Shown here: positions 1,277-21,371 of the stretch, piece after piece
Position numbering within the stretch: position 1 is the first letter of the stretch
Layout of the letters: every line of letters starts with the position of its first letter
Source: an uncultured candidate division Zixibacteria bacterium
GTDB lineage: Bacteria > Zixibacteria > MSB-5A5 > UBA10806
Assembly (NCBI GenBank): GCA_963817915.1
Contig: CAWFQL010000011.1
Location: forward strand, 160,001-224,000
DNA: 64,000 nt
Direction: 5' to 3'
Translations under genes and position numbers: made by a program
Notes under the pieces: generated by a model
What the model was told of the DNA's origin: nothing
The model's database searches: none
The model's input: only the letters and a program-made list of their open reading frames with translations

Positions 1277-3112
1277 TCGCGTTATCCGCGGTTTTTGTAA
1301 TTTCCTGTTTCGGCCTCGCGCTTTCGCAGGGCGATGCCGGTCGCGAATCGCCGTTTATTTTCGGCGCTGGCGGCCGTGGCATGGGGATGGGCCGGGCGTT
1401 TGTGGCCTTGAACGGCGATGCGTCGGCGCCATTCTGGAATCCCGGAGCCGCCGCGACTATCGATCGCGCCGGATTCATGGTATTTCACACATCTTTGTTC
1501 ATGGGGACTAATTACGACTGTTTTTCATTGTCTTATCCTTTTGAGACTCATGGAGTGGTCTCAATCTTTGCCGGACGACTCTCGACCGGCGATATTCAAG
1601 CACGGGACGAATTCAATCGCCTGATCAGGTCGTTTACATCTGCGGAAAATCAATTTGGGATCGGCTTCGGGCGAAATATAGCATACGGTTTTTATGCGGG
1701 AATGTCGCTCAAGGCCGCTTCGATGGAAATAAATTCAATCTCCGGATATGGTTTCGGTGCCGATGTCGGTTTGCAATTCAAACCTCATTATGTAAAAGGA
1801 TTGACTGCCGGGCTGAGCATAAACGATATCATAAAGCCCTCAATAAAATTATCTTCGGTAAGCGATCGATACCAGACTGTCTCGCGTTTCGGGCTATCAT
1901 ATACGCACGGCATTTTGAAAAATATGGAATCAACATTGGCATTACAGTATGAGACGGTCAAAGACCGAAAATCAATAACACGGGCCGGAATTGAAATGGC
2001 ATTTTATGATCATTATTTTCTGCGCGCCGGCATAGATGATTCCAGACCGACATTTGGCGCCGGCATAGATTATAATGATTTTGTGGTTCTGGATTATGCT
2101 TATGAGAATATCGAATTCTTCGGCTCCAGTCACCGAATTTCGCTGGCATTTTCTTTCGGCAAATCAATTGCCCGTTCGCGCGAGGAAGCCCGAGCTCGGA
2201 TTATACAGGACGAAAAAGAAACCTGGCAAAAAGAAGTCGAAAGCCAAAGAAAAATGGAATATAGGTCTTTTCTCGATAATGCTGATAGCCTTCGCCGGGC
2301 CGGCAAATTGGAGGACGCGCTTGGATATTACGAGCGAGCCCTGGCCATTGATAGCACTTCTCGACGTGCCAAAGCCTCCAGCGATAGCGTGATGAGCGAT
2401 ATAATTGCTCAAAGCATTTCAGTTACCCAGGACAAAAAACGGGAAGAGCTTATTTCCAATAGAATCGAGCTGGCGTTGCGGTCGTTGCGAGCCGGTCAGT
2501 ACAATGATGCGATTGCTCAATATCAAATGGTACTGGAGATCGAACCCAGCAATCCCACAGTTGTTGACCTGCTTCAATCGGCACGACAGATGCTCCAGAC
2601 TGAGATTAATAGCGTAAAATCGAAAGCTCAAGCTTCTCAGTCAGCAGGCGATTATGCCAATGCACTTGCTGGAATGGAAGAGACTTAACGATATTGCTCC
2701 GGCTGATAGCGAGGCATTGAGGGGGATAAATATCGCCAAAGGCCAATTGAAAGTCGATGGTCTTGTGGCCACAGCTGTCAACTCGATGAGAAATGGTGAA
2801 TATGCGAATGCGCTTACTTATCTTCAACAAGCGCAGTCACTTAGGCCGAACGATAAGTCTATCGGTTCACTGCTTGCGGAGGCCAAGGCAAAATCCGCGC
2901 CGCCCACGACGCTAAATGATATAAAGGCATCAAAAGAAAATTGGTCTATATATCTTAACGGTCTGGAACAGTATCAATCAGGAAAGTATTCTAAAGCCCT
3001 GGAAAATTGGGAATCGTTGCGAGAATTCTATCCCAATAATCCCGAGCTTGAGAAAAACATCAGCCAGGCCAAGAGCCGTCTTCAAACCGAGGGCGGAGCC
3101 CCCAAAGATTAG
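1252..3112 (+). CDS. PorV/PorQ (UPF0164)-family outer-membrane beta-barrel fused to C-terminal TPR repeats (probable non-ATG start; +1 frameshift near 2665-2673)
   Basis: GAGGRGMGMGRAFVALNGDASAPFWNPGA motif, beta-strand pattern ending HRISLAFSFG, then TPRs. ORFs 1381-2688 and 2654-3112 join as ...DYANALAEWKRLND. An in-frame signal-peptide-like stretch lies upstream of 1381. Confidence 0.75.
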
Positions 3113-3167: not shown

Positions 3168-6113
3168 ATGGGAAAAAAACCAATTAAAGAAGTATTCATG
3201 AGCTTCGCTGCCGAGGAATCCCAAATGGAGGATATCCGAAGCAGCATTCGCGATGTATTGGCCGATTCCGACCTTACAACGAAAGACGTTAATAGTGTTC
3301 TTCTGGCTCTTGAGGAAGGCTGTACCAATGTTATTCGTCATGCATATCTCTATGGCCCTGGCACCATTCGAATTAAGGTAAAGCTTTACCCTGGCAAGGT
3401 TCAATTTTCGATATTTGATCGTGGCCGGGCGTTCGACTTTGACCATTCCGATGTGCCTAATTTGGATCGCTATGTCAAAACGGGACGCAAAGGCGGTTTG
3501 GGGCTTTATCTTATTCGCAAGATGATGGATTCTGTCGATTATCATTCCCGCGATGGCGAAAATGAACTTCGAATGGAAAAAATATCCGATAAAACCAGCT
3601 CGCGATCGATTCGCATTCCAGGTTTCTCAATCCGTGTAAAATTCGCCTTATGGGCATCGCTTGTGGTATTTATGATTGTTGCGGGTGTCTTTTACTATTT
3701 TGATAATCGCGGCCGAAAAAATGCCAGAGAACGATTCTTCGATGGCTCCACGAACGCGATGGAAACATTCGTATCGGATATTGGGGATAAAATCTTATTG
3801 AGGGATTTGGATCTTAATAAATCCGCGGCGTCCTGGCTCGACGCCAACAAAAATCTGTTTTCGTTTATCGTGGTGACAGATACCGGAGGGATTATTATTG
3901 CCGATCCGGAAAGCCCTTCGCTTTTCCTTTCTGCATTTCGCGGAATTGACAGCGGAGATTATAATACTGATATCGCGGTGAAAGACAGCCTGAACAACAA
4001 AATCTTTTATTACAAAAGAGCAGCCAGGATTAATGATCAAACTGTCGGCTACGCTTATTTCGGATTAAGAGAAAGTCCTTTGAAATCCGAATTATCTCAA
4101 ACGCGTACCGGCCTGCTGTTGATTGCATTTGCGGGCCTGTTTGTAGGTTTCATGGCAGTCTATGCCTTGTCCAACTACTTTGTGAAGCCTATTCAAAAAC
4201 TGACCGAAGGCGTACTTAGATTTGGCGAGGGTAATTTAGATCAATCACTGCCGGTGGATGGTTCGGATGAATTTTCGGAGATTGCCCGGGCCTTTAATGA
4301 AATCACAGGCAAATTCAAAAAGGCGCAAGAGAATGTTGTCGAGCAGGAGCGATTGCAAAAAGAAATGCAGGTCGCTCAGGAAATTCAGCATACACTGCTT
4401 CCGCGCACTTTCCCCGATATCGAAGGTTATGATATTGCTACAGTTTACAGGGCCGCCAAAGATGTAGGCGGTGATTATTTTGATTTCGTCAGAATCGATG
4501 AAAACACGCTCGGAATTATCGTCGCCGATGTGTCCGGAAAGGGTATTCCCGGTTCATTGGTTATGACGATGATTCGAACCGCTTTGAGAATGGAAGCGAG
4601 AGGCAATTTCTCCCCCATAGATATTCTTTCGAGAGTAAATAATTTCGTTGCCGATGATGTCAAGAAGGGCATGTTCATTACCATATTTTTCATAATGCTC
4701 AATTCTGAGAGTCGGGCGATATCGTTCTCATCGGCTGGCCACAATCCCATGATTCTTTATCGCAAAGAATCGAATTCTTGCTATTTCCTGAATCCTCGCG
4801 GAATGCCGCTGGGGATAAGTCTCCCTGACGGTGTCAGTTTCGAGAAATCCTTGGAATCAGATAAAGTACAATTGAAAAAAGATGATATGTTGATTGTCTA
4901 TACCGATGGCATAACCGAAGCCATGAACAAGCTCGGTGAGCAATTCGGCAATGATAGGCTGATTCAATTCATAAGAGACAATTCAGATCTTCATCCCAAG
5001 GATTTTGCCAGCAAGCTGGATTTCGAAATCAATAAGTTTACTGGCGGCGCGCCTCAAAATGATGATATCACGTTAGTCGTTATTAAAGAAAAATTGATGC
5101 TCGACGAGGTAATATTCCAGAAACGAAGACGGCTTATAGAGATGGTAGAAAAAGAAGGCGTTCCTCTTGAAGAAGCCTGCACTCAAATGGGAGTATCGAC
5201 CTCGACCTATTATAAATATCTTCGCAGATGGCAAAAATTAGGCGATATGGGTTTATTGAATAAGAAGCTTCGCGCCGAGACCAATATAAAGCAAATTTCA
5301 ACCGAAGTCCGCAAGGAAATCTTGAAGATTGTCAGGGAAGATCCCGAGCTCGGAGGCAAAAGAATTCTTCAAAAGCTTTCGGAATTGGGAATTCAGAATA
5401 TTGATATTCGAGGGCTGTATCTTGAACTCGTAAGAATGCGCCTTAATACCAAAAAACTCAGATTAGAATATGTCGAGCGGGTTGGCGGTTCCACTCCTGA
5501 AATTCGGGCTGAACTCGAAAAAGAAATCCTCAAAGAGGTCAGCAAGAAAGAAGAATTCGATAGAGTTGAGTATATCGAAACTATTAAAAAGAATCTTGAT
5601 CAGAAAAAAGAACAGCTCGGAACGTCGGCCAGGGGGCTTGTCAGCAAGCTTCAGCAAATGGAGCCTGTTCTTGGTGATGCCAGCCTCTATGGTGAAATCG
5701 CCGCTGAACTTGGCAAACTGGGCGAGGGGGAGGATATCGCCAAATTATTTGAGAATCTAATCCTCAAAATGGCGTATAAGAATAAGGGTATCGAGAAATC
5801 ATCAGAGACAGAAATTCCTGCGCCAGCGACAATAAAGCCCATGCCCGATTTGTCCGCAGAAACACCCGTAACGGCAGGCATCGTTTCGGAAGAGGACTCA
5901 ATACCGAAAATAGCACCCAACGATAGTAATTCGGAAATAGCAATCAAGCCGGAAACCGTTGCTCCAATTCAGCCGTTACCCGAGCAGGAAAATACCCCAA
6001 TCGACGTAATTGAAAATGCCAGCAAGCCTCAAATTGATGAAGAAAAAAAGGATGAAGAATTGGATTGGGATGATTATGGTAAGAAGCTTGTTGAAAAATT
6101 TAAGAAAGAATGA
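3168..6113 (+). CDS. Fused RsbW-like Ser/Thr kinase - 2TM sensor - HAMP - SpoIIE/PP2C phosphatase - HTH protein
   Basis: N-term HATPase_c_2 (EEGCTNVIRHAY, DRG, GGLGLYLIRKMMD), two TM helices, HAMP (PIQKL..DEFSEIARAFN), PP2C (VGGDYFD, ADVSGKG, YTDGITEA, QNDDIT), HTH region and acidic tail. Confidence 0.9.
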   Translation: MGKKPIKEVFMSFAAEESQMEDIRSSIRDVLADSDLTTKDVNSVLLALEEGCTNVIRHAYLYGPGTIRIKVKLYPGKVQFSIFDRGRAFDFDHSDVPNLDRYVKTGRKGGLGLYLIRKMMDSVDYHSRDGENELRMEKISDKTSSRSIRIPGFSIRVKFALWASLVVFMIVAGVFYYFDNRGRKNARERFFDGSTNAMETFVSDIGDKILLRDLDLNKSAASWLDANKNLFSFIVVTDTGGIIIADPESPSLFLSAFRGIDSGDYNTDIAVKDSLNNKIFYYKRAARINDQTVGYAYFGLRESPLKSELSQTRTGLLLIAFAGLFVGFMAVYALSNYFVKPIQKLTEGVLRFGEGNLDQSLPVDGSDEFSEIARAFNEITGKFKKAQENVVEQERLQKEMQVAQEIQHTLLPRTFPDIEGYDIATVYRAAKDVGGDYFDFVRIDENTLGIIVADVSGKGIPGSLVMTMIRTALRMEARGNFSPIDILSRVNNFVADDVKKGMFITIFFIMLNSESRAISFSSAGHNPMILYRKESNSCYFLNPRGMPLGISLPDGVSFEKSLESDKVQLKKDDMLIVYTDGITEAMNKLGEQFGNDRLIQFIRDNSDLHPKDFASKLDFEINKFTGGAPQNDDITLVVIKEKLMLDEVIFQKRRRLIEMVEKEGVPLEEACTQMGVSTSTYYKYLRRWQKLGDMGLLNKKLRAETNIKQISTEVRKEILKIVREDPELGGKRILQKLSELGIQNIDIRGLYLELVRMRLNTKKLRLEYVERVGGSTPEIRAELEKEILKEVSKKEEFDRVEYIETIKKNLDQKKEQLGTSARGLVSKLQQMEPVLGDASLYGEIAAELGKLGEGEDIAKLFENLILKMAYKNKGIEKSSETEIPAPATIKPMPDLSAETPVTAGIVSEEDSIPKIAPNDSNSEIAIKPETVAPIQPLPEQENTPIDVIENASKPQIDEEKKDEELDWDDYGKKLVEKFKKE

Positions 6114-6856
6114 TTAAACTCGCTATCCTGACATCCAAAGGCGGGACAGGGAAGACTACTACCGCTATTAACCTTGGACATGGTCTGGCTTTATCCGGGA
6201 AGAAGGTGTTGTTAGTCGATTGCGATCCGCAGGGGTCAACATCGGCGGCTTTTGGTGTTGATGGCGAAAGGGGACTTTCGAATTTATTAACGGATGGTAA
6301 AGTCGATATTTATCAGGTTAGACCAAGGCTCTTTTTATTGCCGTCGGGCAAGAAACGTTTGGCTGACCTTGAGATGACATTAGCCACTATGGACGATAAA
6401 GAATACAGAATCAGCAACGCCCTGGGAAGGCTTTCGGGAAGCGATTGGGTTATTTTAGATTGCTCTCCGTCAATAAATATAATAAATTTAAATGCTTTAG
6501 GGTTTGCGGAACATCTCCTGATTCCAGCATCACTGGATTTTTTTTCGCTGGAGGGAGTTAAATCCACGATGGAATTGGCTAAAGAGATTACGGCAAAAGG
6601 AAAGGGAATGCTTGAGATTCTCGGAGTATTGCCGACATTTTATGATAGAAGGACTATTATTTCGAGGCTGGCTTTAGATGAACTGCGGAATAGCTACGGC
6701 CCGCTCGTATTTAATACTGAAATAAGATTGAATGCCGAGATAAAGAAATCGCAATGGTACAGGCAAACCGTTTTTGAATATGCCCCATTTTCTCATGGAG
6801 CTTATGATTATTATAAATTATCGAAAGAGGTCCAGGAAAGATTGGAGACGAAATAA
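6110..6856 (+). CDS. ParA/Soj-family ATPase (orphan, no parB)
   Basis: Deviant Walker A KGGTGKTT, LVDCDPQG, ILDCSPS, YDRRT. Confidence 0.92.
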   Translation: MIKLAILTSKGGTGKTTTAINLGHGLALSGKKVLLVDCDPQGSTSAAFGVDGERGLSNLLTDGKVDIYQVRPRLFLLPSGKKRLADLEMTLATMDDKEYRISNALGRLSGSDWVILDCSPSINIINLNALGFAEHLLIPASLDFFSLEGVKSTMELAKEITAKGKGMLEILGVLPTFYDRRTIISRLALDELRNSYGPLVFNTEIRLNAEIKKSQWYRQTVFEYAPFSHGAYDYYKLSKEVQERLETK

Positions 6857-6858
6857 AT

Positions 6859-7581
6859 ATGAGTGATATAAAAATATCTTTAGACAGCGCGGGTCCCAAG
6901 GGAGAAATTTCAGTAGTCAGGGTCGACGGGGTCATTGATACCATGACTTCCAGCGACCTCGAAAAAGTAATGAATTCTCTTCTTGAGAGGGGCAAATATT
7001 ATATCGTAATCGATCTCGGCGGGGTAGATTATATATCATCAGCGGGATGGGGTATATTTATTTCGAATATAAGAGAAATCCGCCAGCATTCTGGCGATAT
7101 CAAGCTGGCTCGTATGATTCCCAATGTGTACGAGATATTTGAGCTGTTGGAATTCGATAGCATTCTTAAAGCTTTTGACAGCGTCGAAAAGGCCAAATCG
7201 GATTTTAGCTTCATCAAAAGAAATGGCGCCGACTCCGGCGAAAGAGTGCCCGTAGAGGTTGCGGTTGCGGCGCTGGATTCCGCGGAACCTACTCAGAAGA
7301 TTAAAGAAGTGGCGAATCCGTCAACGAATCTGCAAGATGCTCCCAAACAGCTTTCGCAGTTAGAAAAGAAATCAACCGCTCCCGGGCTTCAGGAAATAGT
7401 TGTTGAGATGGTCATAAAGGACCCCTTCTTTTCGATATCAGAAATTAAAACCGAAATCGCCAGAAAATATCCGACCGCCCAATCTGGTTGGTGGCAGATT
7501 TGGAATGTTTTGCGTCAAAATCGCCTCTTAAGCAAGAAAAGCCGTTTTCGCCTGTCACGTTTTAAGAGCGGAGTTCGATAA
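6859..7581 (+). CDS. STAS anti-sigma-factor antagonist with C-terminal HTH-like domain
   Basis: VRVDGVID, VDYISSAGWG phospho-Ser motif, YEIFELLEF, linker, then a helical basic C-terminal domain. Confidence 0.88.
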   Translation: MSDIKISLDSAGPKGEISVVRVDGVIDTMTSSDLEKVMNSLLERGKYYIVIDLGGVDYISSAGWGIFISNIREIRQHSGDIKLARMIPNVYEIFELLEFDSILKAFDSVEKAKSDFSFIKRNGADSGERVPVEVAVAALDSAEPTQKIKEVANPSTNLQDAPKQLSQLEKKSTAPGLQEIVVEMVIKDPFFSISEIKTEIARKYPTAQSGWWQIWNVLRQNRLLSKKSRFRLSRFKSGVR

Positions 7582-7584
7582 TTA

Positions 7585-9429
7585 ATGATCAATAAGCCAA
7601 AGGCGTGGCCCTTTATAGTAATTTCATTGATGCTGGCCGGCATAGTAATAGCATCAGGGTTTTTCTTGAAAAACCTTAATGCAAGAATATCTATTTATCT
7701 GGCAGGAATATTGATATTGGGGTATTTGATCTATTCATATATCCGTGCCTCCTGGAAGGCCGCCATCATCGAAAAATTAATCAATACAGATTCAAATGAT
7801 AAGGATACCCTGGCCAATTCATTGCTTTCGGAGATAATCGCATCAGGTATTCAGAAAAAATCGATTCAGCAAGCGGCATCGGAAATCATAAAATCAAAAT
7901 TTGGCATCGATAAATTCGTAATTTATTTTCGCGATGACGATAAATTAATTCCTCGAATATATTCAAATGTTAATATTAAAAATCTGGGATATCTGAACAC
8001 CGATAAAATTAAAAAATACCTGGGTTCAAATATGGATTCCGGAATAATATTTAAGAATGACACCTTATTTCACGCCGCTGCAAAAAATAATGATAATGAT
8101 GAATTCGAATCCTATAATATTTTTGCTTTTTCCTGGGGCAAAGGCGGATTAATTCTGATAATTTTCGATGATACCATTGGGCATTTTACCGAAATATTAA
8201 AAAATGCCGACATGAACAAAATGCTTTGGCCGGGTTTGGATTATACATTAAGAGTCCATTTCGATCTCAAGGAAAATGCCGCCGATCTAAAGCAAAATCG
8301 AATAGAATTGGGTCGCGCGAAGAAAGAATTGATTGAATTGAATAAAGAACTCAACAAGAAGATGCTCGATGTCCAGTCGTTCGTCAAGATATCAAACGAT
8401 CTTTATTCACTATTCAATGAAGATCAGCTATTCCCTACATTGAAAAACACGATTAGCAATCAACTTGGGGCGACTAAAGTCGAAATCTTAAAGCCATCCG
8501 GCGACGGGACTTTCAAATTATCCGCCGAAGCTACGGGCAATTCCAATTCGGGATTTGAACTTATATTAGACAGTGAATCGGCTCTATTGAAATTATTGCA
8601 AAAAAGCGCCAAACCACTTTTAATGCCGCTGGTAGGCTCAGGATTAAGCCCCAAAGAACCATTTCTCGACGCGGCAGCCCAGGCCGGTTTTCAGATAGCC
8701 TCGCCAATAAAGGTCAGCGGCCGAATTGAATGCATTATTTTAGTGGGCGAAAAGAAGGATAAAGGACAATATCTAAACCAGGATATAGATTCATTTTATA
8801 GTATCAGTAATATTGCCTCGCTGGCATTGGAAAATATAAAACAGTATTCAACAATAGAGAAACTTTCATATACTGACAGCATGACGGGTATTTATAACTA
8901 TCGCTATTTCTATAAACGTCTCAGCGAGGAAATTCTGAGAGCTCAAAGATACAACCGTGAAATCGCATTGGTAATCATGGATATCGATAATTTCAAAACT
9001 TTTAATGATAATTTTGGCCATCAGGCCGGAGATATGGTATTAAAACAATTGTCGGAGCTGATAACTCGGACGATAAGGTCAATTGATGTTGTCAGCCGCT
9101 ATGGAGGCGAGGAATTCTGTATTATCATGCCGGATACGGGGACTGCCAATTGCAGTATTTTTATCGAACGTTTAAGAGCCGAAATTGCGGGTTTTAAATT
9201 TGAATCGGAGGCGTCCCATATTAATTCAATAACAGTTTCAGTCGGGGGAGCGGTCTACCCATATCACGGGACTAATCCCGACCGATTGATATATTGTTCT
9301 GATATGGCATTATTGAAAGCAAAATCGTCGGGCAGGAACCGCGCGTTGATGTATAGCGTAAATAGTGATGATAAAGGGGATTTAATGTCTGGGAGGTCAG
9401 ATGTCGCTAAAAGGGAATATACAGAATAG
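7585..9429 (+). CDS. Membrane-anchored GAF-GGDEF diguanylate cyclase
   Basis: Two N-terminal TM helices, coiled coil, GAF, TDSMTG, DIDNFK, RSID I-site, SRYGGEEF. Confidence 0.92.
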   Translation: MINKPKAWPFIVISLMLAGIVIASGFFLKNLNARISIYLAGILILGYLIYSYIRASWKAAIIEKLINTDSNDKDTLANSLLSEIIASGIQKKSIQQAASEIIKSKFGIDKFVIYFRDDDKLIPRIYSNVNIKNLGYLNTDKIKKYLGSNMDSGIIFKNDTLFHAAAKNNDNDEFESYNIFAFSWGKGGLILIIFDDTIGHFTEILKNADMNKMLWPGLDYTLRVHFDLKENAADLKQNRIELGRAKKELIELNKELNKKMLDVQSFVKISNDLYSLFNEDQLFPTLKNTISNQLGATKVEILKPSGDGTFKLSAEATGNSNSGFELILDSESALLKLLQKSAKPLLMPLVGSGLSPKEPFLDAAAQAGFQIASPIKVSGRIECIILVGEKKDKGQYLNQDIDSFYSISNIASLALENIKQYSTIEKLSYTDSMTGIYNYRYFYKRLSEEILRAQRYNREIALVIMDIDNFKTFNDNFGHQAGDMVLKQLSELITRTIRSIDVVSRYGGEEFCIIMPDTGTANCSIFIERLRAEIAGFKFESEASHINSITVSVGGAVYPYHGTNPDRLIYCSDMALLKAKSSGRNRALMYSVNSDDKGDLMSGRSDVAKREYTE

Positions 9430-10429
9430 TCTTATGGTTAGCCCAAAAATTAATTGTACTTCTCGAATTGTGCTAATATTTGCTATTTTGTTCATTTCGG
9501 CTAACGCGCAGGATAAGGATACTTATATTATTGGTCCGACGGACAGATTAGCCATATCATTCTGGCAGCAGCCCGATTTAAATACAACAGTTCGAGTCAG
9601 TGATAATGGAAATATAACCTTGCCGGTAATAGGGGAGATCAGGGCTGCGGGACTGACCACCGCGGAATTATCAAAAAAAATTGTAGAGCAAATGGTGTTT
9701 TATAATAGTCCTGTATCACAGGCGACAATAGCAGTCACTGAGTATAATTCCCGGACAGTGGTTGTCACCGGGCAGGTATTGACCCCCGGAAGCCATAGCT
9801 ATGAAAAAATACCTGATATCTGGAAAGTCATTCTCGATTCTGGAGGGCCCACATCTCAGGCGAATCTTTCCGGTGTCACGATTGTACGGAAGGATGGCGA
9901 AAAGACTGATGTAATTGATGTCGATTTGTATAAAATAATCAAAGATGGTGATTTATCGAAGGCTCCTCCACTCAAACCGGGTGATTTGGTCAATATTCCT
10001 GTTTCACCATATGGGTCGGCGGTTGAGCTTGCCGGAACGCCTCAAGCTGAACGGAAAAATATCTATTTTGTTTTTGGAAGGGTTACAACTCCCGGGGCCA
10101 GGGACCTTCAAGAGGGTATCGATATAATGGATGCCATCACGCTGGCCGGTGGACCTCTTGCGGATGCTGATTTGAGAAATATCAGAGTAATTATGAAAGA
10201 CGCCGGGCCGTCGAATATAGTCAAAATTGATCTCGAAAATTATATTGATAAGGGAACTCCTTCTCGTTTTTTGCTTCGTGCTGAAGACACCGTGGTTATT
10301 CCACTGCGTAGGGACGGCACTTTCACAAATATTACGAATAGGCTTGCTACGGTTGTACCAATCATTACCGCCATAGGGACATTGATATTATTATACTATA
10401 ATATTCAAGAGATAAATAGGAGACGTTAG
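9401..10429 (+). CDS. Polysaccharide export protein, Wza/SLBB family
   Basis: YIIGPTDRL, GNITLPVIGEIRAAGLT Poly_export motif and two SLBB repeats; start may be 9434. Confidence 0.88.
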   Translation: MSLKGNIQNSLMVSPKINCTSRIVLIFAILFISANAQDKDTYIIGPTDRLAISFWQQPDLNTTVRVSDNGNITLPVIGEIRAAGLTTAELSKKIVEQMVFYNSPVSQATIAVTEYNSRTVVVTGQVLTPGSHSYEKIPDIWKVILDSGGPTSQANLSGVTIVRKDGEKTDVIDVDLYKIIKDGDLSKAPPLKPGDLVNIPVSPYGSAVELAGTPQAERKNIYFVFGRVTTPGARDLQEGIDIMDAITLAGGPLADADLRNIRVIMKDAGPSNIVKIDLENYIDKGTPSRFLLRAEDTVVIPLRRDGTFTNITNRLATVVPIITAIGTLILLYYNIQEINRRR

Positions 10430-10432
10430 AGC

Positions 10433-12016
10433 TTGAGTAACGATAAAAAGCAAATAAATCTTAAAGAATACTGGGGCATTCTTACGCGTCGCAAGACGCT
10501 CCTAATATTGCCTATTTTGATAATACCATTAGTCTCAATTGCGGTAAGCTATTTTTTAAAGCCTCAATATGTTTCATCTGTTACCATTTTGACCGGAGAA
10601 ACCAATATTTTGCCCCCTTCAGTCGAGAGAGAATTGCAAAGCGGACAAAGATTCGATTGGACTGAGCCGCAGGAACGGCTGATTTCGATTACGAGTAAGA
10701 TCACATCAACTAAGTATTTGAGAAGATTGATTTCAGTTCTTGATATTAAAGCTACACCTGAGATAATGAAGGTCGTGACTGAAACCAAGACCGCATTCCC
10801 GGATATTTCTGAAGCTGATCTTGCCGAAAATATTATGGCTGATCAGCTTAGAAATAATATAACTGTCAATTTACGCTCGAATAACGTTTTTGAAATTCTT
10901 TTTGCGTCCGCCGACCCAATTATGGCGCAGAAGCTTGCCAAATCACTCGCCGACATTTTTATTGAAGAGAATTTAGCACAGGATATGGCGGGGATTAGGT
11001 CCAATATCAGCTTTTCGGAAGAGCAATTAGCAGTTTATCACGAGAAGCTTAAAGATGCCGAGGACAAGTTGAAGGACTATCGTGAAGGCATTCTGGCGAC
11101 ATCTGTCGGGGAAGATACTACTGGCGCAAGCCTCCGGATGATAATTTCCGCTGCAGAAGCGCTTGATTTGGAAATACGAAAAGAAGAGGAATCTCAGGAT
11201 AGTGTGCGATTATATCTGGTAAACAATAAGGTCGATTTGGCAAATCTGGTGTTGCCGGTAAACCTGCAAAACGAAAAATCCAGGCTCATTAATCTCTTAT
11301 CGACTCTAACTGAATTGTTGACTAGAAATAGCTGGCGAGACCCCAAAGTAGTCAATTTAAACGAAGAAGCCAAAAATCTGCATGATCTCATTACACGGGA
11401 AATCGGCATTTTTACTGAAAGTCAATATGCAGATAAATCTTCTCAATTTAAAGATAAAATATCTGAATATCTAACTGGTTCGGTATCGCTCGAATATAGC
11501 AGGGCAAAGAAAGAGGCTCTCGATAAAAGCGTAGGCAAGATCAAATCGCGGATAACCAAAAATCCTGATACCGAAGTAACTATTCAGAGGCTGCAAAGCG
11601 AGGTCAATACTTATCGTGATTTGTACAATACATTCGTGATGCATTCGCAGTACGGAGCGATAGACCAATCCGCCAAGAAGGTCGAAGCTGAAGCCAAATT
11701 TATGATAATAAAGCCAGCCTCGCTCCCATTAACGCCCGAATCACCCAACAGACAGAAACTGGCATTAATGGGAATAGTTCTGGCGTTAGCAATTGGAGTG
11801 GGAGCAATCATTATACTGGAATTGCTCGATAACTCATTCAAGAAGATCGATGATGCTGAAAATTATTTGAATATTGCCGTAATAGGGACTATTCCAAAAA
11901 TCCTTCTTCCCTATTATTCGCCGATTAAAAAAAGAATTCCAATCCTAATCGGAACCGGCATCAGTTTTATGCTTATTATATTAATACTTTATTTAAATTT
12001 AAGGAAAAGCGGGTAA
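10433..12016 (+). CDS. Polysaccharide chain-length determinant (GumC/Wzc N-terminal)
   Basis: INLKEYWGILTRRK plus TM, long coiled coil, PASLPLTPESPNR plus TM, ELLDNSF. Confidence 0.88.
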   Translation: MSNDKKQINLKEYWGILTRRKTLLILPILIIPLVSIAVSYFLKPQYVSSVTILTGETNILPPSVERELQSGQRFDWTEPQERLISITSKITSTKYLRRLISVLDIKATPEIMKVVTETKTAFPDISEADLAENIMADQLRNNITVNLRSNNVFEILFASADPIMAQKLAKSLADIFIEENLAQDMAGIRSNISFSEEQLAVYHEKLKDAEDKLKDYREGILATSVGEDTTGASLRMIISAAEALDLEIRKEEESQDSVRLYLVNNKVDLANLVLPVNLQNEKSRLINLLSTLTELLTRNSWRDPKVVNLNEEAKNLHDLITREIGIFTESQYADKSSQFKDKISEYLTGSVSLEYSRAKKEALDKSVGKIKSRITKNPDTEVTIQRLQSEVNTYRDLYNTFVMHSQYGAIDQSAKKVEAEAKFMIIKPASLPLTPESPNRQKLALMGIVLALAIGVGAIIILELLDNSFKKIDDAENYLNIAVIGTIPKILLPYYSPIKKRIPILIGTGISFMLIILILYLNLRKSG

Positions 12017-12020
12017 ATAA

Positions 12021-13139
12021 GTGGTTTTCAACGGTTATACAGACAAATTCAAAAGACTGGGAAGGGAGTATCTTTTTCAGACTTCTATAGATAATAGTCG
12101 CAAACAAGTAGTAAGTTCGTTGTTTCATGCGGGGCAGCTGCTGAATAGTATCGCTACTCCATTTCAGGATGCTTCGCAGGGAGAGAAGTTGTTTGAAAAG
12201 GCGCTAAGTTTTCATAAGCAAAATCTTGGGGATCTGGATTCATTGCTTGGCTTGGCCGAACGGATGCGAAGTTTAGAAAAGCCGGATATAATCGAAAAGC
12301 TCGGGAAATCATTATGTGCAAGACAGCTTTATGATGAAGGTTTGGAACTGCTGCTTCTGGCTTCTCAGAAATACCCCGAAAGTCCCGGGCTGCATCATGT
12401 TCTCGGCAAATTATACCTGGCCAAGGGACAGGTCAATGATGCCGAAACTGAATTTGGACGCGCCGTTGATTTGGCGCCCGATTTCCCGGACTATAGAAAC
12501 GCCCTTGGAATCGCCTATTTAAAATCAAACAAGGCTGTGGCCGCAATCTCCGAATTCAAAAAAGCCGTGACGCTTAATATCTATTTTGATAAGGCTTATT
12601 TTAATCTGGGTTTGGGGTATATAGCCAATGGCATCATTAGGGAAGATTTCAATCTGGCCAAAAATCTCGTCCAAAATAGCATGGATGCTCTCCAAAAAGC
12701 CGCGTTGTTTAATCCGGCTTATAATACGGATAAATATACCGAGGGCCTTGAATTTCTTAATGAAGGCGAATATGAAAAGGCCTATTCAACGTTGTCGAAA
12801 GTTGCCGAGGAACATACATCTCGTTCCGCGGAAGAGCATTTGGTCGAATTATATCTTCGATATATTCATAACGAGACCGGAATGTCCGAAGAGGGGATTA
12901 ACAACTTTATTGAACGGATTAAAGACTTATTGAAATTAAATCCAGGATATGCCGATTTGCATAATGAATTGGGCATGGCATATACTATCCTGTGTAAATT
13001 TATGAATGATAAGGCAATTTATCATTTTCAGGAGGCGCTCAAAATTAATCCCAATTTTACAAAGGCTGTAAAAAATCTAAAATTATCGAAAAATGACTTG
13101 AAGGGATTCGAAATTCTTTTGGAAGCGATTTTAAAATGA
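12021..13139 (+). CDS. TPR-repeat protein
   Basis: Repeats such as PDFPDYRNALG, PGYADLHNELG, ALKINPNF. Confidence 0.85.
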   Translation: MVFNGYTDKFKRLGREYLFQTSIDNSRKQVVSSLFHAGQLLNSIATPFQDASQGEKLFEKALSFHKQNLGDLDSLLGLAERMRSLEKPDIIEKLGKSLCARQLYDEGLELLLLASQKYPESPGLHHVLGKLYLAKGQVNDAETEFGRAVDLAPDFPDYRNALGIAYLKSNKAVAAISEFKKAVTLNIYFDKAYFNLGLGYIANGIIREDFNLAKNLVQNSMDALQKAALFNPAYNTDKYTEGLEFLNEGEYEKAYSTLSKVAEEHTSRSAEEHLVELYLRYIHNETGMSEEGINNFIERIKDLLKLNPGYADLHNELGMAYTILCKFMNDKAIYHFQEALKINPNFTKAVKNLKLSKNDLKGFEILLEAILK

Positions 13140-13864
13140 AAAATAACGGCAAATTTCCGCCATTAACGGCTGTCTTCGATAAGGAATCATCGGTTGCGAC
13201 TGAATTCAGAAGGCTTTATTCCAATTTAAAATCCCGCAAGGGAACTGAAAATTTAAAAACGATAATGATTACTTCCGCGATAATTGGCGAGGGCAAATCC
13301 CTTACAAGTTCCCTGCTATCAATGACAATGGCGGATCTGACCAAAGCCAAAATTGGATTGGTTGATTTCGATTTAAGACGTCCCAAATTGAATATTTATT
13401 TTAATTTGCCTATAGAAAATGGCGTCTCCGATGTCCTTGGGGGCAAAATCGGCATAAAGGAAATTTGCCGCAAGACTACTATACCAAATCTGACAGTGCT
13501 TTGCGCGGGGAAACCAAATAATAATCCAAGCGAAATTATCGATAGAGCCGATATACCTGCATTTTTTCAGGAGCTAAAATTCTATTTCGATTACATTGTG
13601 ATCGATTCGCCCCCTGTAATTCCCGTTTCGGATCCATTGCTGATCGCTGATCAGGTTGATGGCGTGTTATTAGTTGTAAGGGCCGGAACAACCCAGCGCG
13701 AGGTAGTCGGCAGGGCCGTAAATCTTCTGAAGAATGCCAAAGTCAATCTTCTTGGCGCCGTATTGAATGACTGCGAAAGCGTTTTGCCCTATTATTACAA
13801 AGAAAGCTACTACGGATATCGTTATTATCACAAAGATAATAAAAAATCCCAAAAGACCGCATAA
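13136..13864 (+). CDS. CpsD/CapB-family bacterial tyrosine kinase
   Basis: EFRRLYSNL, ITSAIIGEGKS, VDFDLRRP, VIDSPP, C-terminal Tyr cluster YYYKESYYGYRYY. Confidence 0.93.
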   Translation: MKNNGKFPPLTAVFDKESSVATEFRRLYSNLKSRKGTENLKTIMITSAIIGEGKSLTSSLLSMTMADLTKAKIGLVDFDLRRPKLNIYFNLPIENGVSDVLGGKIGIKEICRKTTIPNLTVLCAGKPNNNPSEIIDRADIPAFFQELKFYFDYIVIDSPPVIPVSDPLLIADQVDGVLLVVRAGTTQREVVGRAVNLLKNAKVNLLGAVLNDCESVLPYYYKESYYGYRYYHKDNKKSQKTA

Positions 13865-14083
13865 CCCCGACCTTAATGCATTTTTGTTGCATTGTATTGC
13901 ATAGTGGGTTGATTTAGTCCATTTTAGTTACCCCATATTTTAGCCTAATATTAATTTATGTTCTTATTTCACGCCGCCATTGTGGTAATATAACTTATTA
14001 CACTGTTTATATTTATAAGACAATGAGCATTAAAATTAATATCAATAAAATTAACTAAAGTTGAATCTCTCAAATCCCATTTG

Positions 14084-14099
14084 TGGCAGATATTTTGCA
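14084..14099 (+). promoter_or_regulatory. sigma54 (-24/-12) promoter of the sugar transferase
   Basis: TGGCAGATATTTTGCA has exact GG-N10-GC spacing and lies 42 bp before the ATG, after a long AT-rich region. Confidence 0.75.
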
Positions 14100-14140
14100 T
14101 TAGGTCATATCAACTTAGAGGATAGAGGGAGAAGACTGTT

Positions 14141-15040
14141 ATGCGTTATCAAAATCCAATTCCAAGCCCCATGGCACACTACTGGGAAGAAGAGGCAATT
14201 AATGCCTGGGGAACTTGGTTAAGGTTACGTAAGGGCGGTCGCCGCGTCTTAAATTTTGTGCTTAGCGAAGTAGTTCTTGCTAATATTTATCTGCTTTCCG
14301 GCTTGATCGCAAACTCTGGCCTGCTCTTGGAAGCAAGAGCAAAGTCCGCAGTTTTATCGAATCATATAAACATCGGAGCGATTCTTAAAAGATCTGTGGA
14401 TATTATCGGAGCGGCATTTGGGCTGGTATTGACATTGCCTATCTGGATAATAGTACCGATCGCCATTAAACTGGATAGTTGCGGATCAGTTTTTTATACT
14501 CAGGAAAGAGTTGGGATTAACAGACGCAGAGGCAATCGCAGAAAAATTGCTGTCGATGGCGAAGAAAATAGAGTTTCGGTCGAAAGAAGAAAGAAATTCA
14601 GCTACGGTAGATCATTTACGATATTAAAATTCCGAACTATGTACATCAACGCAGAATCGATTTCAGGTCCGAAATGGGCATGCAAGAATGATCCCAGAGT
14701 GACAAAATTGGGACGAATTATGAGAGCCACCAGGATTGATGAAATTCCCCAATTATTGAATGTTTTAATGGGAGATATGAGCCTGGTTGGGCCGCGGCCG
14801 GAAAGACCGTTCTTTGTAGACAAGCTTCGTCAAAGTATCGATGAGTATGCCTGCAGATTCGAGGTAAAGCCGGGAATCACAGGGCTTGCTCAGGTCGAAC
14901 ATAAATATGACGAGAGTCTCGAGGATGTAAGCAAGAAAATTAAGTATGATCTTAATTATATTCGAAATTGGACTTTATTCCAGGATATGAAGATTATCGT
15001 TAAGACCATATCGGTGGTTTTAACCGCCCGAGGGATGTAG
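14141..15040 (+). CDS. Priming glycosyl-1-phosphate transferase (WcaJ/WbaP-like sugar transferase)
   Basis: KRSVDI, KFRTM, DPRVT, IDEIPQLLNVLMGDMSLVGPRPER, KPGITGLAQV. Confidence 0.93.
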   Translation: MRYQNPIPSPMAHYWEEEAINAWGTWLRLRKGGRRVLNFVLSEVVLANIYLLSGLIANSGLLLEARAKSAVLSNHINIGAILKRSVDIIGAAFGLVLTLPIWIIVPIAIKLDSCGSVFYTQERVGINRRRGNRRKIAVDGEENRVSVERRKKFSYGRSFTILKFRTMYINAESISGPKWACKNDPRVTKLGRIMRATRIDEIPQLLNVLMGDMSLVGPRPERPFFVDKLRQSIDEYACRFEVKPGITGLAQVEHKYDESLEDVSKKIKYDLNYIRNWTLFQDMKIIVKTISVVLTARGM

Positions 15041-15062: not shown

Positions 15063-15092
15063 GACGGGGATTGCAATCCCCGTCTTTTTTTT
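15063..15092 (+). terminator. Rho-independent terminator
   Basis: GACGGGGATTGCAATCCCCGTC hairpin followed by T8. Confidence 0.85.
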
Positions 15093-15297
15093 GCATAATT
15101 TTAATTATGTTCCAGTCGATATCATAATTAGGATGAGATCGACTATTTCCCCCAAAATTATATTTTGAGTTTTGAATATGATTATGGTATAAGTAATAGG
15201 TAATTATGGCCAGGAAGATAAATATTTAACAGATCACCATCCAAGGCCATTTAGATTTCGTGGATGGTGAGATAAAATGCTTAATTCGGAGACTACA

Positions 15298-16002
15298 ATG
15301 ATAAAGAGAATTTTCATAATGATTGTATTGGCTCTATTGATTTTTCAAACAAGCGTCTGGGCCCAGGACAAGGATAATATCATCTTAACTACCAGACCGG
15401 CCGGAGCTACTATTTACTTGAATGGCGAATATGAGGTTGTAGCCAATGCGCCCGCCAGACTGCCGTCAAGCATCGCGGGGCGCTATAATGTCAAAATAAC
15501 GCGGCCGGGTTATGAGACCTGGAAAGGCATCCTTACTTTTGTCCCAGGCAGTGCCAATAATATGACTATCGATCTGAGTAGGAAGACAAGATTCAAATCA
15601 TGCCTGCGTTCGATTTTTATTCCGGGATGGGGCCAGATCTATTCAGGGCAGACCCTGAAGGGAAGCGCTATTACCGGAGCGGCGATTCTATCCGCTGCCT
15701 CATTTTATTTCGCGGATAAACGCTATCAAAAGAAAAAAACAGATTTCGATATCGCCATGTCAGAATATAGAGTGGCGACTTCAGCTGAAGATCAAATCAG
15801 GCTCAAAGTTAATTTGGATAGTCGGCAGCGTTCGGCATACCAGGCTGAGACCGATAGACGCACGGCCATGGGAGTTGCGGCCGCTGTTTGGGCATACAAT
15901 ATAATAGACGCTTTAATTTTCTTTCCTGACAATGAATTATTTTATCCTTCGGCTGTTGCTTTAAATGATGGTGCCATGTTGAAATTTACGATGGAATTTT
16001 AG
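15298..16002 (+). CDS. Secreted PEGA + DUF5683-like domain protein
   Basis: Signal peptide, TRPAGATIYLNG/ITRPGYE (PEGA), RSIFIPGWGQIY, WAYNIIDA. GGAG RBS favours start 15298 over 15277. Confidence 0.75.
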   Translation: MIKRIFIMIVLALLIFQTSVWAQDKDNIILTTRPAGATIYLNGEYEVVANAPARLPSSIAGRYNVKITRPGYETWKGILTFVPGSANNMTIDLSRKTRFKSCLRSIFIPGWGQIYSGQTLKGSAITGAAILSAASFYFADKRYQKKKTDFDIAMSEYRVATSAEDQIRLKVNLDSRQRSAYQAETDRRTAMGVAAAVWAYNIIDALIFFPDNELFYPSAVALNDGAMLKFTMEF

Positions 16003-16016
16003 GGTGGGGGATATTT

Positions 16017-17879
16017 ATGAAAATTGATAATATTAAAATAATAAGCATAATAATGCTTCTCTTCGTCGTAATCGCGGTGGGGTGTTCCAGAAAAATTACC
16101 GAGCCGGTATCTCCTCCGATCAATAATTTTGTCCCTCCAACTCCTGAAAGTGTTCTTGCTACAGTGGGTGACAGGACCATCGTACTGTCCTGGACAATTT
16201 CAGATACCAGTAGGATAGCACATTATAAAATTTATATGTCGGATTCGCTCCAGGGAACATATAATTTGCAGGCAGAACCGGCAGTACAGACATACTCATT
16301 AAGTGATCTTCAAAATGGCACAATCTATTTTATCAGAGTTTCCGCGGTAAGCGATTCGGGTTTTGAGGGCTATAGAAGCGCTCCGATTTCAGTGACGCCT
16401 GATGTTTTCTCTATTCTTATCGATAATGGCGCTCTCTATACAAATCGACTTGATTTAAACCTGGCACTGACCGCTCCGGTCGGTACAAGGCTAATGCAGA
16501 TATCAAATAATTCCGAGTTTTCCGGCGCTCAATGGGAGCCATTCGCTGTAACGCGTACCTGGCAATTGCTGCCCGGAGATGGGATTAAATCAGTGTATGC
16601 GCGCTTCAGGGATTTCAATGATTATTCAACCACAAATAATATTTCCGACCAGATTGAGCTGGACACCAAGGCCATGGTCGATTCAGTTACATTCGAGCCG
16701 ATACAGGGCTTTTTTGTCGCGGGAAATACTGTTCGTTTTAGATTATATTCAGGTGAACCTTACGGCAGCGCGTCGATCACTGTCGGAAATAATTTGCTGA
16801 ATTTGACATTATATGATGATGGCAGCATGGGAGATTCTATCGCGGGAGATGGTATTTACGAATTGAATTACCAAATCCCCGGTTTTCTCGATTTTGAAAA
16901 TGAGATGGTTATAGGCGGCTTCACTGACCGTGCCGGAAATACCGCTCAGCAGGCTCAGGCAGCAGCGTTTTTCTCTGTGCGCCGCCACCCCGACGCTATT
17001 TCTATCAATAGTCTGTTTCCCCCATTGCAGTATTATGATAGAGTTGAAATTTCCTGGGGGCAGTCGCAGGCGCCCGATTTCGCGAGCTATAGAGTATACA
17101 GGAAGGCCACGTCCGGGGTTGATTCCAGCTCGACACTGGTCCTTTTGGCCACGTCGGCAGGAGCTACGACCGCAATAGATAGCGGACTTGCCGCCAGCAC
17201 TCAATATTATTATCGAGTGTACGTTGTCGACAATACTGGGCTTTGGGCCGGTTCATCGGAAAGTCACGTTACCACCAATTCTGATCAGCCGCCTGTGCCG
17301 GTTACTCTGATGCCAATATCTACTCTGCCCGATCAATACCAAAATGTTACCGTTTCGTGGACAGAATCCGGCGATGTGGATTATTCAAATTACAGATTGT
17401 ATCGTTGGATTGCCGGTTCGCCCAGATCAGACAGCGCGCTGGTAACCATAATATCCGATAGGGCGACTACAGCTTTCGAGGATCATCCGCTATTTGGGGC
17501 CGGCCAGAATACTATTACTTACCGGTATATTATTCATTTATATGATATCGGCGGTAACCACGCCGCATCCGATAGTGTCAATGCGACTCTTACGGATCTG
17601 ATTCCACCTCAGGTATCGGGGAATGTAGCCCCATCGGAAAATTCTCTCATTATCACCTGGGCGCCGTCGACAATTCCGGATTTCGCGTCGTACCGGCTTC
17701 TGCGCAATACAACATCGAATCCAGCCACAGCCATCACGGTATTTGTCGCATCGGATTCAGCCACTATCACCTACACCGATGCCAACACCGTGACGGGGCA
17801 GACTTACTATTATTGGCTGGATATATTTGATAGGCGAGATAATAGCTCCCGCACACTATTAGGCAGCGCGAATTGGTAG
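16017..17879 (+). CDS. Lipoprotein with multiple fibronectin type III domains
   Basis: Lipobox IAVG-C, FN3 repeats (LSW...YKIY; ISW..YRVYR), LYDDGSMGDSIAGDGIY choice-of-anchor X-like motif. Confidence 0.8.
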   Translation: MKIDNIKIISIIMLLFVVIAVGCSRKITEPVSPPINNFVPPTPESVLATVGDRTIVLSWTISDTSRIAHYKIYMSDSLQGTYNLQAEPAVQTYSLSDLQNGTIYFIRVSAVSDSGFEGYRSAPISVTPDVFSILIDNGALYTNRLDLNLALTAPVGTRLMQISNNSEFSGAQWEPFAVTRTWQLLPGDGIKSVYARFRDFNDYSTTNNISDQIELDTKAMVDSVTFEPIQGFFVAGNTVRFRLYSGEPYGSASITVGNNLLNLTLYDDGSMGDSIAGDGIYELNYQIPGFLDFENEMVIGGFTDRAGNTAQQAQAAAFFSVRRHPDAISINSLFPPLQYYDRVEISWGQSQAPDFASYRVYRKATSGVDSSSTLVLLATSAGATTAIDSGLAASTQYYYRVYVVDNTGLWAGSSESHVTTNSDQPPVPVTLMPISTLPDQYQNVTVSWTESGDVDYSNYRLYRWIAGSPRSDSALVTIISDRATTAFEDHPLFGAGQNTITYRYIIHLYDIGGNHAASDSVNATLTDLIPPQVSGNVAPSENSLIITWAPSTIPDFASYRLLRNTTSNPATAITVFVASDSATITYTDANTVTGQTYYYWLDIFDRRDNSSRTLLGSANW

Positions 17880-17880
17880 A

Positions 17881-18726: not shown

Positions 18727-18811
18727 TTCAAAAAGCTCCCCAATCCAATATTAAATCGCCTTTTTTTAATTTATATCTTCAAGATTTCGGATTTATTCCG
18801 ACAACAGTACT

Positions 18812-20776: not shown

Positions 20777-20791
20777 CGGCACATGATTTGC
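20777..20791 (+). promoter_or_regulatory. sigma54 promoter of the pilin cluster
   Basis: CGGCACATGATTTGC, exact -24/-12 spacing. Confidence 0.75.
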
Positions 20792-20931
20792 CTTATAGGT
20801 CTGCGGTTTCGCGAAGAAATCAAAATGAGACAGTCAGACAAAAGCTAATCCGGCACAGATTAAAGTTGAAATTGCAAAGTTCGATAAAACAAATGGAAAA
20901 CCAGGGAACTAGAAAACAGAGAGGTGAGAAA

Positions 20932-21357: not shown

Positions 21358-21371
21358 CGAATATTTCTTGG

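Follow-up and report, generated by a model that had tools for sequence, protein, structure and literature searches.

Several described phospho-switches resemble the one analysed here. In Vibrio fischeri, SypE joins a serine kinase at its N-terminus, a receiver (REC) domain in the middle and a PP2C phosphatase at its C-terminus, and acts on the STAS protein SypA, with which it is encoded within a polysaccharide locus; in the account of PMC10120452 the downstream role falls to the STAS protein, without a sigma factor taking part. In HptB-HsbR-HsbA-HsbD of Pseudomonas aeruginosa and BgrSTUWV-BgrR of Sinorhizobium meliloti, the phosphorylation state of a STAS protein controls a diguanylate cyclase, with effects on biofilm or exopolysaccharide (EPS) (PMC5085249, PMC6482189, PMC8457831). 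HsbR bears PP2C and kinase in one chain (PMC6482189), and HsbA, which binds HsbD when phosphorylated, is described as affecting the location of HsbD in the cell. In SiaABCD of P. aeruginosa, a membrane HAMP-PP2C protein (SiaA) is combined with a kinase and a small phospho-switch protein; the cyclase is co-transcribed, and unphosphorylated SiaC binds and activates SiaD (PMC8457831). In CapK/CapS (Chambers et al., EMBO J 2026, PMC13373217), an RsbW-like kinase with a helix-turn-helix (HTH) module phosphorylates a repressor made of STAS and a winged HTH (wHTH), which then releases DNA. In the All4160/HenR case of cyanobacteria, PP2C and RsbW-like kinases set the STAS phosphorylation that governs an EPS priming transferase (bioRxiv 10.64898/2026.04.08.717354). 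Here we analyse a locus in a 64,000-nucleotide (nt) stretch of DNA (the window) from an uncultured Zixibacteria bacterium, namely positions 160001-224000 of contig C11 (CAWFQL010000011.1) in a 3.3-Mb metagenome-assembled genome (MAG; GCA_963817915.1). It encodes a membrane sensor kinase/phosphatase, which we call KinPP2C, followed by a ParA ATPase, a STAS protein, a diguanylate cyclase and genes for EPS export. We consider, with a probability of about 0.65, that these genes form a sigma-factor-independent phospho-switch of the partner-switching type, which sets the output of cyclic di-GMP (c-di-GMP) and EPS. The locus belongs to none of the SypE/SypA, Hsb/Bgr, SiaABCD and CapK/CapS systems, but it combines principles of each of them.

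Eight open reading frames (ORFs) on the plus strand, from 3168 to 13864, are joined throughout by overlaps or gaps of a few bases. The parA gene overlaps the end of the KinPP2C gene by 4 nt, the STAS gene follows after 2 nt and the cyclase gene after a further 3 nt. This agrees with the tightly coupled run described in the original prediction, which had been made from the letters of the window. Domain calls were made with Pfam and NCBIfam models and judged against the cut-offs of the families. They also bear out the gene order proposed there (ParA, STAS, GGDEF, Wza, Wzc-N, a tetratricopeptide repeat (TPR) protein, bacterial tyrosine kinase (BY-kinase) and priming transferase), as well as the joining of an RsbW-type kinase, a membrane sensor with HAMP and a PP2C phosphatase in one chain. 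In KinPP2C, the HATPase_c_2 match reached 95.1 bits (cut-off 27.4), and the kinase domain also matched NF003144 (E 9.2e-18). The kinase residues E49, E50, N54, D84, G86, G109, G110 and G112 and the phosphatase residues D436, D439, D454, G457, D580, G581, D632 and D633 were invariant across 29 aligned orthologues. The outside segment of about 135 amino acids (aa) gave a weak sCache_3_2 match (E 0.05), and many KinPP2C orthologues carry a precomputed call of this family (PF17203). No Pfam match to Response_reg was found in the 981 residues, the central position being taken by the membrane sensor and HAMP. The top 120 protein clusters listed in the search were full-length or partial KinPP2C relatives, and the family is annotated as 'SpoIIE family protein phosphatase' only.

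The STAS domain of the putative substrate (PF01740, E 2.7e-17) scored 58.5 bits against TIGR00377 (cut-off 53.45) and was modelled with a predicted local distance difference test (pLDDT) score of about 90. Its best fold match was SpoIIAA of the SpoIIAB complex (1tid_B; Z 19.3, root-mean-square deviation 1.8, 116 aligned residues). Ser61 (codon 7039-7041) is invariant in the STAS orthologues and the surroundings of the Ser-Ser motif are almost so. This residue aligns with the serine replaced in the SpoIIAA variant of 1tid and with the corresponding serine of RsbV; the SpoIIAA serine is named Ser58 in the CapS paper (PMC13373217). Because the genome has three strong HATPase_c_2 genes and three STAS genes, and every kinase/STAS pair is adjacent, the neighbouring STAS protein would be the natural substrate of KinPP2C. 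The cyclase starts with two hydrophobic helices and a poorly conserved cytoplasmic region. Its GGEEF motif, RxxD site and metal/substrate residues are invariant in 23 orthologues (R498, D501, G507, G508, E510 and F511), as expected for the GGDEF part of the GAF-GGDEF cyclase that had been predicted. The GAF part is a lead only: no Pfam match was obtained at E<=10, and the language-model look-alikes were GAF clusters (0.95; 186 of 256 features).

At the level of sequence, the module has every hallmark of a partner switch, as the RsbW-type kinase motifs, the PP2C aspartates and the STAS serine were all found. As in SypE/SypA, the defining anti-sigma feature is lacking, because the 13 sigma-70-family (Sigma70_r2) genes of the genome are all outside the 64-kb window, the nearest at a distance of about 60 kb, and none was seen among the neighbours scanned near the orthologous loci. 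The locus is therefore free of sigma factors, as had been claimed.

The arrangement of the genes is conserved in relatives, a point that the original prediction had left to a neighbourhood search. We examined 45 related loci, among which 12 were duplicates, 4 were cut at the enzyme gene and 30 were informative. The order KinPP2C-ParA-STAS-GGDEF is kept in 24 of the 30 informative Zixibacteria loci, with parA in the same position in all 24. Of the 23 loci whose sequence reaches that far, 21 have Wza next. The order goes beyond chance, because several families of the class retain it at protein identities of 30-75%. A STAS gene beside an intact GGDEF gene was seen in 24 of the 30 loci and additionally in L028. 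In two loci (L050 and L051), the four-gene core is found without the export genes, the next genes being on the opposite strand, so the signalling core is separable from the export block. The remaining six informative loci (L025-L030) have no ParA; one of them, L028, retains the enzyme, STAS, GGDEF and Wza in this order. Among 41 genomes sampled from the class, 37 have a fused KinPP2C orthologue. The parts are unfused on a Victivallaceae contig (L059), which encodes a STAS protein, a 152-aa kinase and a 582-aa HAMP-PP2C protein.

Compared with the described systems, the domain order of the enzyme is that of SypE, the cyclase wiring is that of Hsb, Bgr and Sia, and the STAS-HTH idea is that of CapS. 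SypE has a REC domain in the centre, whereas KinPP2C has membrane helices, a Cache-like domain and HAMP. Relative to SypE/SypA, the enzyme also has an extra tail with an HTH and a predicted ParA dock, the STAS protein has an HTH tail, and ParA and a cyclase are part of the module. The Hsb and Bgr systems receive their input through REC domains or a phosphorelay, have another domain order and have neither ParA nor HTH; the contact between STAS and cyclase is a feature of these systems and is inferred here. In SiaABCD, the switch protein SiaC is a DUF1987 protein rather than a STAS protein, and the kinase stands as a protein of its own. Scores were 73.6 bits for the SiaA model (cut-off 700) and 155.4 for the SiaD model (cut-off 290); because these scores are far below the cut-offs, the proteins of the locus are not SiaA or SiaD orthologues. 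CapK/CapS is similar in its HTH-bearing RsbW-like kinase, in its STAS-HTH substrate and in a STAS serine that controls the output of an adjacent operon. It differs in having no phosphatase and no membrane sensor, in a kinase of HTH-STAS-GHKL architecture activated by single-stranded DNA, and in serving immune operons instead of EPS. In the cyanobacterial case, STAS is fused to the priming transferase, whereas here the transferase is a separate gene without STAS and, for this reason, could be a target only in trans.

We suggest that the outside Cache-like domain and HAMP sense a signal and that HAMP shifts the balance between the RsbW-type kinase and the PP2C phosphatase of the same chain. The kinase would write, and the phosphatase erase, the phosphate on Ser61 of the STAS protein, which would be the switch. 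The phosphorylation state of STAS would control the cyclase encoded directly downstream, most likely through direct binding as for HsbA-HsbD, BgrV-BgrR and SiaC-SiaD, and the cyclase, via c-di-GMP, would control the machinery of Wza, the polysaccharide co-polymerase (PCP), the BY-kinase and the priming transferase. Besides the cyclase and DNA, STAS may have a third target in this transferase, in analogy to the STAS-Bac_transf fusions of cyanobacteria. The outside signal is probably a cue from the envelope or from a surface protein secreted by the type IX secretion system (T9SS). This cue is proposed because the most constant neighbours of the sensor are the upstream genes for a T9SS-tail protein, a PorV/PorQ-family TPR protein and a small TPR protein. 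Most loci retain the T9SS-tail gene upstream of the sensor gene, and the PorV-like gene adjoins the sensor gene even in loci without ParA, STAS and GGDEF. Finally, the HTH modules and the ParA dock might make a scaffold linked to DNA or the nucleoid, which joins enzyme, substrate and ParA, and a direct action of the STAS-HTH protein on DNA is possible as well.

Both the enzyme and its putative substrate carry HTH modules, in accordance with the HTH tails of the original prediction. In KinPP2C, HTH_23 reached 30.9 bits (cut-off 24.6) and HTH_32 stayed just under its cut-off, and residues 652-765 matched the N-terminal DNA-binding region of IS481 transposases (NCBIfam, E 2.9e-16). The STAS domain is followed by 128 aa, beginning with a hypervariable, disordered linker of about 55 residues (pLDDT about 40). 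The conserved tail behind it has four short predicted helices with a pLDDT of about 97, ends in a conserved basic stretch and had no Pfam match. In a profile-profile comparison by hhalign, STAS residues 176-235 aligned with KinPP2C residues 713-771 (probability 89.6%, E 1.9e-6, 60 columns); because this match is significant, the two proteins carry homologous HTH modules. Against the single sequence from the window, the STAS-tail profile gave a weak match (E 0.012, probability 3.6%). The STAS protein of L027 has the tail and the L027 enzyme has no HTH, which fits a separate acquisition of the two modules. Profiles A4 and A6 match only themselves in this genome, so it has no wider network of HTH tails. 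In L028 (5107-5783), the STAS ORF stops after 134 aa and the tail was matched apart at 5601-5783; the STAS gene is either interrupted there or the tail is a separate ORF.

A search of 1.84 billion representatives with the STAS-tail profile returned 218 proteins at E<=1e-3, of which 28 were scanned with Pfam. Eleven of these were glycosyltransferase-2 proteins with a transposase-type HTH, most of them with two tandem pairs; seven had HTH domains only, one had STAS and six had no Pfam match. Three of the latter six were read and proved to be C-terminal fragments of STAS-tail proteins. The tail match coincided with HTH_32, HTH_Tnp_Tc3_2 or HTH_Tnp_ISL3 calls in all six proteins checked by eye. 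The glycosyltransferase set (P0211, P0213, P0217, P0223, P0224, P0225, P0228, P0229, P0233, P0238 and P0242, with HTH_23/HTH_32) includes a cluster member named as a Patescibacteria glycosyltransferase, and the same HTH type therefore recurs on polysaccharide enzymes of another phylum. Three matches (P0127, P0169 and P0190) were regarded as spurious. The top-scoring P0127 (3274 aa) had 37 partial matches to profile positions 17-48 and P0169 (790 aa) had 12 such matches, and both look like artefacts of repeats or low complexity. With the STAS tail as the query, the look-alike search of the Atlas gave no usable match, the word-indexed homologue search found the protein itself alone, and the sequence profile of the PDB reached E 0.25-0.72 only, with a SNF8 winged helix and an Lrp/AsnC-type regulator.

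These modules bear on the alternative that STAS-HTH is, like CapS, a DNA-binding regulator of the downstream cyclase/EPS operon. In such a case, phosphorylation of Ser61 would alter its oligomerisation or DNA binding and the cyclase would be a regulated product. The transposase-type HTH with its basic end, the lack of a sigma factor nearby and the persistence of the STAS tail in L027, where the cyclase is not adjacent, speak for this, as does the precedent itself, in which the HTH-bearing CapK frees the CapS repressor from DNA by phosphorylation (PMC13373217). However, the STAS and wHTH domains abut in CapS and are parted by the disordered linker here, and the HTH is of HTH_32/Tc3-like type here, whereas that of CapS is MarR/ArsR-like. 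Neither palindromes nor repeats stood out as operator candidates in 1-21000, the fold matches of the STAS tail reached only Z 5.0-5.7, and the tight coupling of STAS and GGDEF in the 24 loci favours a protein partner. By analogy, the CapK/CapS model would be a strong alternative or an additional output. It is compatible with a phospho-switch acting on the cyclase; we regard it as possible, though somewhat doubtful.

The phospho-switch that we favour is accompanied by a ParA of its own. The Walker A residues K10, G11, G12, T13, G14, K15 and T16 of this ATPase are invariant in 23 sequences, and its closest solved relative is Soj of T. thermophilus (1wcv; 177 bits, E 2.7e-51, full length). The term 'orphan' used for it earlier is appropriate, as ParB_N matches in the genome were found only on two other contigs, C16 and C4. 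Each of the 23 aligned enzymes that have ParA next to them has an aromatic-Tyr-Lys-Leu motif at its end, with a second short motif about 20 residues before it, and the six aligned enzymes without ParA have neither motif (L042 and L057, in which the enzyme gene is in pieces, were left out of the alignment). We predicted the complex of two ParA copies, two ATP and residues 890-981 of KinPP2C. The interaction prediction score from aligned errors (ipSAE) between ParA and the tail was 0.68, 0.65 and 0.68 in three runs, and the best of three controls scored 0.00. In the calibration of the mark applied to this score, 116 of 157 solved complexes attained it, as did 2 of 215 mismatched pairs. At least 74% of the contacts are shared between the runs, the pLDDT of the partner is at least 55, and the confident ParA contacts fall exactly on the motifs at residues 937-954 and 964-978, with the tail motif touching one ParA protomer in the model. 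The tail motifs of KinPP2C are thus predicted to dock the Soj-like ParA. In a FastTree phylogeny of the enzyme core, the ParA-less L025 and L026 sit inside the ParA clade (support 0.97), as sisters of L049-L051 (support 0.81); because of this nesting, ParA and the tail motif may have been lost together.

The predicted dock, and the transposase-type HTH on both tails, lend computational support to the idea that ParA and the HTH modules position the switch. KinPP2C would then be a cargo of ParA with a built-in 'ParB-like' adaptor, consisting of the HTH and the docking motif, by which the sensing of the envelope or of adhesins is tied to the nucleoid and the control of c-di-GMP and EPS is brought close to DNA. 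We put this forward tentatively and think it rather unlikely. Like the ParA positioning ATPases (Soj/ParB and BcsQ), this ParA has a deviant Walker A, and it is predicted to grip a short motif at the end of the disordered tail of a client that bears an HTH. Compared with Soj/ParB, the locus has no ParB_N protein, no parS-like repeat arrays were seen in 1-21000, the adaptor is part of a signalling enzyme and the motif is C-terminal.

ParA might instead act like BcsQ or TadZ and, independently of the nucleoid, bring the sensor or the export machine to a pole or other membrane site, with the HTH modules serving protein contacts. Its client is a membrane protein, it matches the BcsQ family over the full length (TIGR03371, E 3.5e-20), and HsbD is reported to be placed at the pole through its STAS partner. 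However, the score of 72.5 bits is below the BcsQ cut-off of 157.85, for which membership was rejected, and the match to Soj is much better (E 2.7e-51). We consider this alternative unlikely.

It is still less probable that ParA and the HTH modules are passengers, either leftovers of mobile elements or, in the case of ParA, a protein with a separate housekeeping role. The HTH modules are indeed derived from transposases, ParA is closest to the chromosomal Soj, and relatives without ParA exist (L025-L030). Nevertheless, nearly all of the top 120 clusters listed keep an in-frame transposase-type HTH after the phosphatase, parA overlaps the enzyme stop codon and holds this position in 24 of 24 loci, and the tail motifs, which are missing where ParA is missing, are conserved although the linker before them is hypervariable. 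The predicted dock (0.68 versus 0.00 in the controls) argues in the same direction, and the two ParB genes elsewhere in the genome may do so. The canonical anti-sigma model, in which the RsbW-type domain holds a sigma factor encoded elsewhere, unphosphorylated STAS frees it and the EPS and cyclase genes are its regulon, has in its favour the RsbW/SpoIIAB-like kinase domain (NF003144) and the 13 sigma-70-family genes of the genome, but it is highly improbable given the lack of a sigma gene in the window or near the orthologous loci, the tethering of the kinase to the membrane and the role of STAS as the downstream component in SypE/SypA and in the STAS-cyclase systems as they are described.

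Several points weigh against a phospho-switch on the cyclase with ParA and HTH as its scaffold. The reading is based on sequence, synteny and predicted structures. As far as the sequence goes, either STAS state could activate the cyclase, and the precedents are opposed. None of the export proteins was recognised as a c-di-GMP receptor. The pair of enzyme and STAS has no adjacent cyclase in L027, and the enzyme has no adjacent STAS in L025, L026, L029 and L030, where it stands beside unrelated genes (pilMNO and hrcA-grpE-dnaK). DNA binding by ParA and by the two HTH modules is putative; all fold matches of the STAS tail alone, mostly wHTH or HTH DNA binders, were below Z 8, and Foldseek found no match to it at E<=0.001. 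Centromere- or operator-like repeats and palindromes in 1-21000 were chance-level pairs only. Custom alignments and the ATP ligand were used for the prediction of the dock, unlike in the calibration. ParA-family ATPases with partner peptides have solved structures, and because of this the passing score of the dock may partly reflect likeness to them. Finally, the co-occurrence of ParA and the tail motif is statistically weak, because at most two evolutionary events are involved.

The features of the locus are listed in Table 1. The original prediction had the priming transferase separately promoted and the unit starting at 3168, and neither statement could be upheld. A gap of 276 nt separates the transferase ORF from the BY-kinase gene, and no terminator-like site was found between 13864 and 14141 in the consensus scan. 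A separate promoter is not shown, because the only strong terminator-like hairpin follows the transferase; this hairpin is likely the end of the transcription unit. The sigma-70 promoter scan (54 sites, compared to 39.2 +/- 6.9 in shuffles) is uninformative for this phylum. At the other end, the conserved unit begins further upstream, with the T9SS-tail gene and the PorV-like/TPR genes.

Table 1. Positions in the window of the genes, domains and signals of the KinPP2C locus.
Feature	Position	Strand	Evidence
Protein with weak T9SS C-terminal sorting signal, 251 aa	521-1276	+	Pfam/NCBIfam T9SS-tail matches below cut-off
PorV/PorQ-family outer-membrane protein fused to TPR repeats	1252-2688	+	NF033709 PorV_fam, 91.8 bits (cut-off 90)
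Small TPR protein	2654-3112	+	Pfam TPR_2
KinPP2C, membrane sensor serine kinase/phosphatase, 981 aa	3168-6113	+	Pfam, NCBIfam, alignment
RsbW/SpoIIAB-type GHKL serine-kinase domain, residues 13-138	3204-3581	+	HATPase_c_2, E 4.2e-27
Hydrophobic helix 159-178, outside Cache-like segment 179-315, second helix 316-338	3642-4181	+	Read from sequence
HAMP domain, residues 334-378	4167-4301	+	Pfam, E 3e-12
PP2C/SpoIIE phosphatase domain, residues 445-640	4500-5087	+	Pfam, E 2.1e-48, 165.3 bits
Transposase-type bipartite HTH, HTH_23 (651-693) and HTH_32-like (~713-771)	5118-5480	+	Pfam, NCBIfam, hhalign
Two conserved C-terminal KinPP2C motifs, 937-954 and 964-978, after variable linker; predicted ParA dock	5976-6101	+	Alignment A2, complex prediction
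Soj-like ParA ATPase, deviant Walker A	6110-6856	+	AAA_31, E 6.4e-35; start overlaps KinPP2C stop
STAS protein, 240 aa: STAS 15-112, disordered variable linker, HTH-type tail ~176-236	6859-7581	+	Pfam, alignment, predicted structure
Membrane diguanylate cyclase, 614 aa; GGDEF 429-586, GGEEF and RxxD site	7585-9429	+	Pfam, E 1.7e-45
Wza	9401-10429	+	Poly_export, SLBB
Wzz/PCP	10433-12016	+	Wzz, GNVR
TPR protein	12021-13139	+	
BY-kinase	13136-13864	+	TIGR01007, 138.9 bits (cut-off 108.05)
Priming polyprenyl-phosphate sugar transferase (Bac_transf)	14141-15040	+	Pfam, E 1e-63
Terminator-like hairpin	15063-15084	+	9-bp stem, 6 GC pairs, T8; consensus scan

In the upstream genes, the first ATG, GTG or TTG of the PorV-like frame is at 1381, and the frame, translated from 1261 to 1440, is open further upstream and encodes a signal-peptide-like stretch from about 1252, which has no canonical start codon and runs over the end of the gene before it. 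Likely reasons are an error or a non-canonical start, perhaps ATT at 1252. A hairpin at 1275-1293 was not counted as a terminator, because it is inside the probable coding sequence. The PorV-like/TPR and small TPR proteins are a single ORF of 608-638 aa in the distant relatives L025-L028, and in the window and the two closest families they are two frames with an overlap of about 35 nt. Three consecutive ORFs, of 1557, 391 and 251 aa, overlap in different frames (L062, 13430-19977, reaching into 1-1276 of the window). They represent either three genes or a single giant surface protein with frameshifts, and proteins with Big_5 and TPR are encoded further upstream.

The export genes gave their best matches to the models TIGR03027, TIGR03007, TIGR03018 and TIGR02917 of the XrtA/PEP-CTERM EPS locus, all below cut-off, for which this assignment was rejected; the sole exosortase of the genome is on contig C9 and not adjacent to the locus. 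After the terminator, 15277-20572 encodes a PEGA/DUF5683 protein, a 620-aa fn3 protein, a 281-aa protein without a family and a TMEM260-like protein of GT-C type. These genes are syntenic in the two closest families, and neither Wzx/Wzy nor ordinary glycosyltransferases were found near them. Four small proteins with a prepilin N-methylation motif and a prepilin peptidase (20788-23732) lie just downstream of the EPS-associated genes, followed by a PAS histidine kinase and an HDOD protein. A second, unfused partner-switch module is present at 37810-43381, with a GAF-PP2C protein (37810-39141), an RsbW-like kinase (39138-39587) and a STAS protein (39612-39923), and after these a REC protein, a PAS histidine kinase and an NtrC-type sigma-54 activator. 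A flagellar cluster (motAB, flg, fliF-J) follows directly after this module, which recalls the Hsb module of Pseudomonas, which is beside flagellar genes.

The 'candidate new system' of the original prediction was an overstatement, as STAS-controlled cyclases, fused kinase/phosphatases and a STAS-wHTH repressor are already in print. In the literature searched, we found no description of a ParA attached to a partner-switch enzyme, of a transposase-type HTH shared by enzyme and substrate in an EPS or c-di-GMP setting, or of an association of a partner switch with PorV-like or T9SS genes. Partner switches that work independently of sigma factors are coming to light as general regulators of c-di-GMP and polysaccharide production, and their outputs are poorly understood. 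To these, the KinPP2C family, which is conserved through an uncultured phylum, adds a shared domesticated transposase HTH and a tail that is predicted to hold ParA. If this is true, ParA-type positioning would extend to a signalling enzyme, and there would be a route from the status of the outer membrane or of adhesins to a DNA-proximal control of the biofilm matrix.

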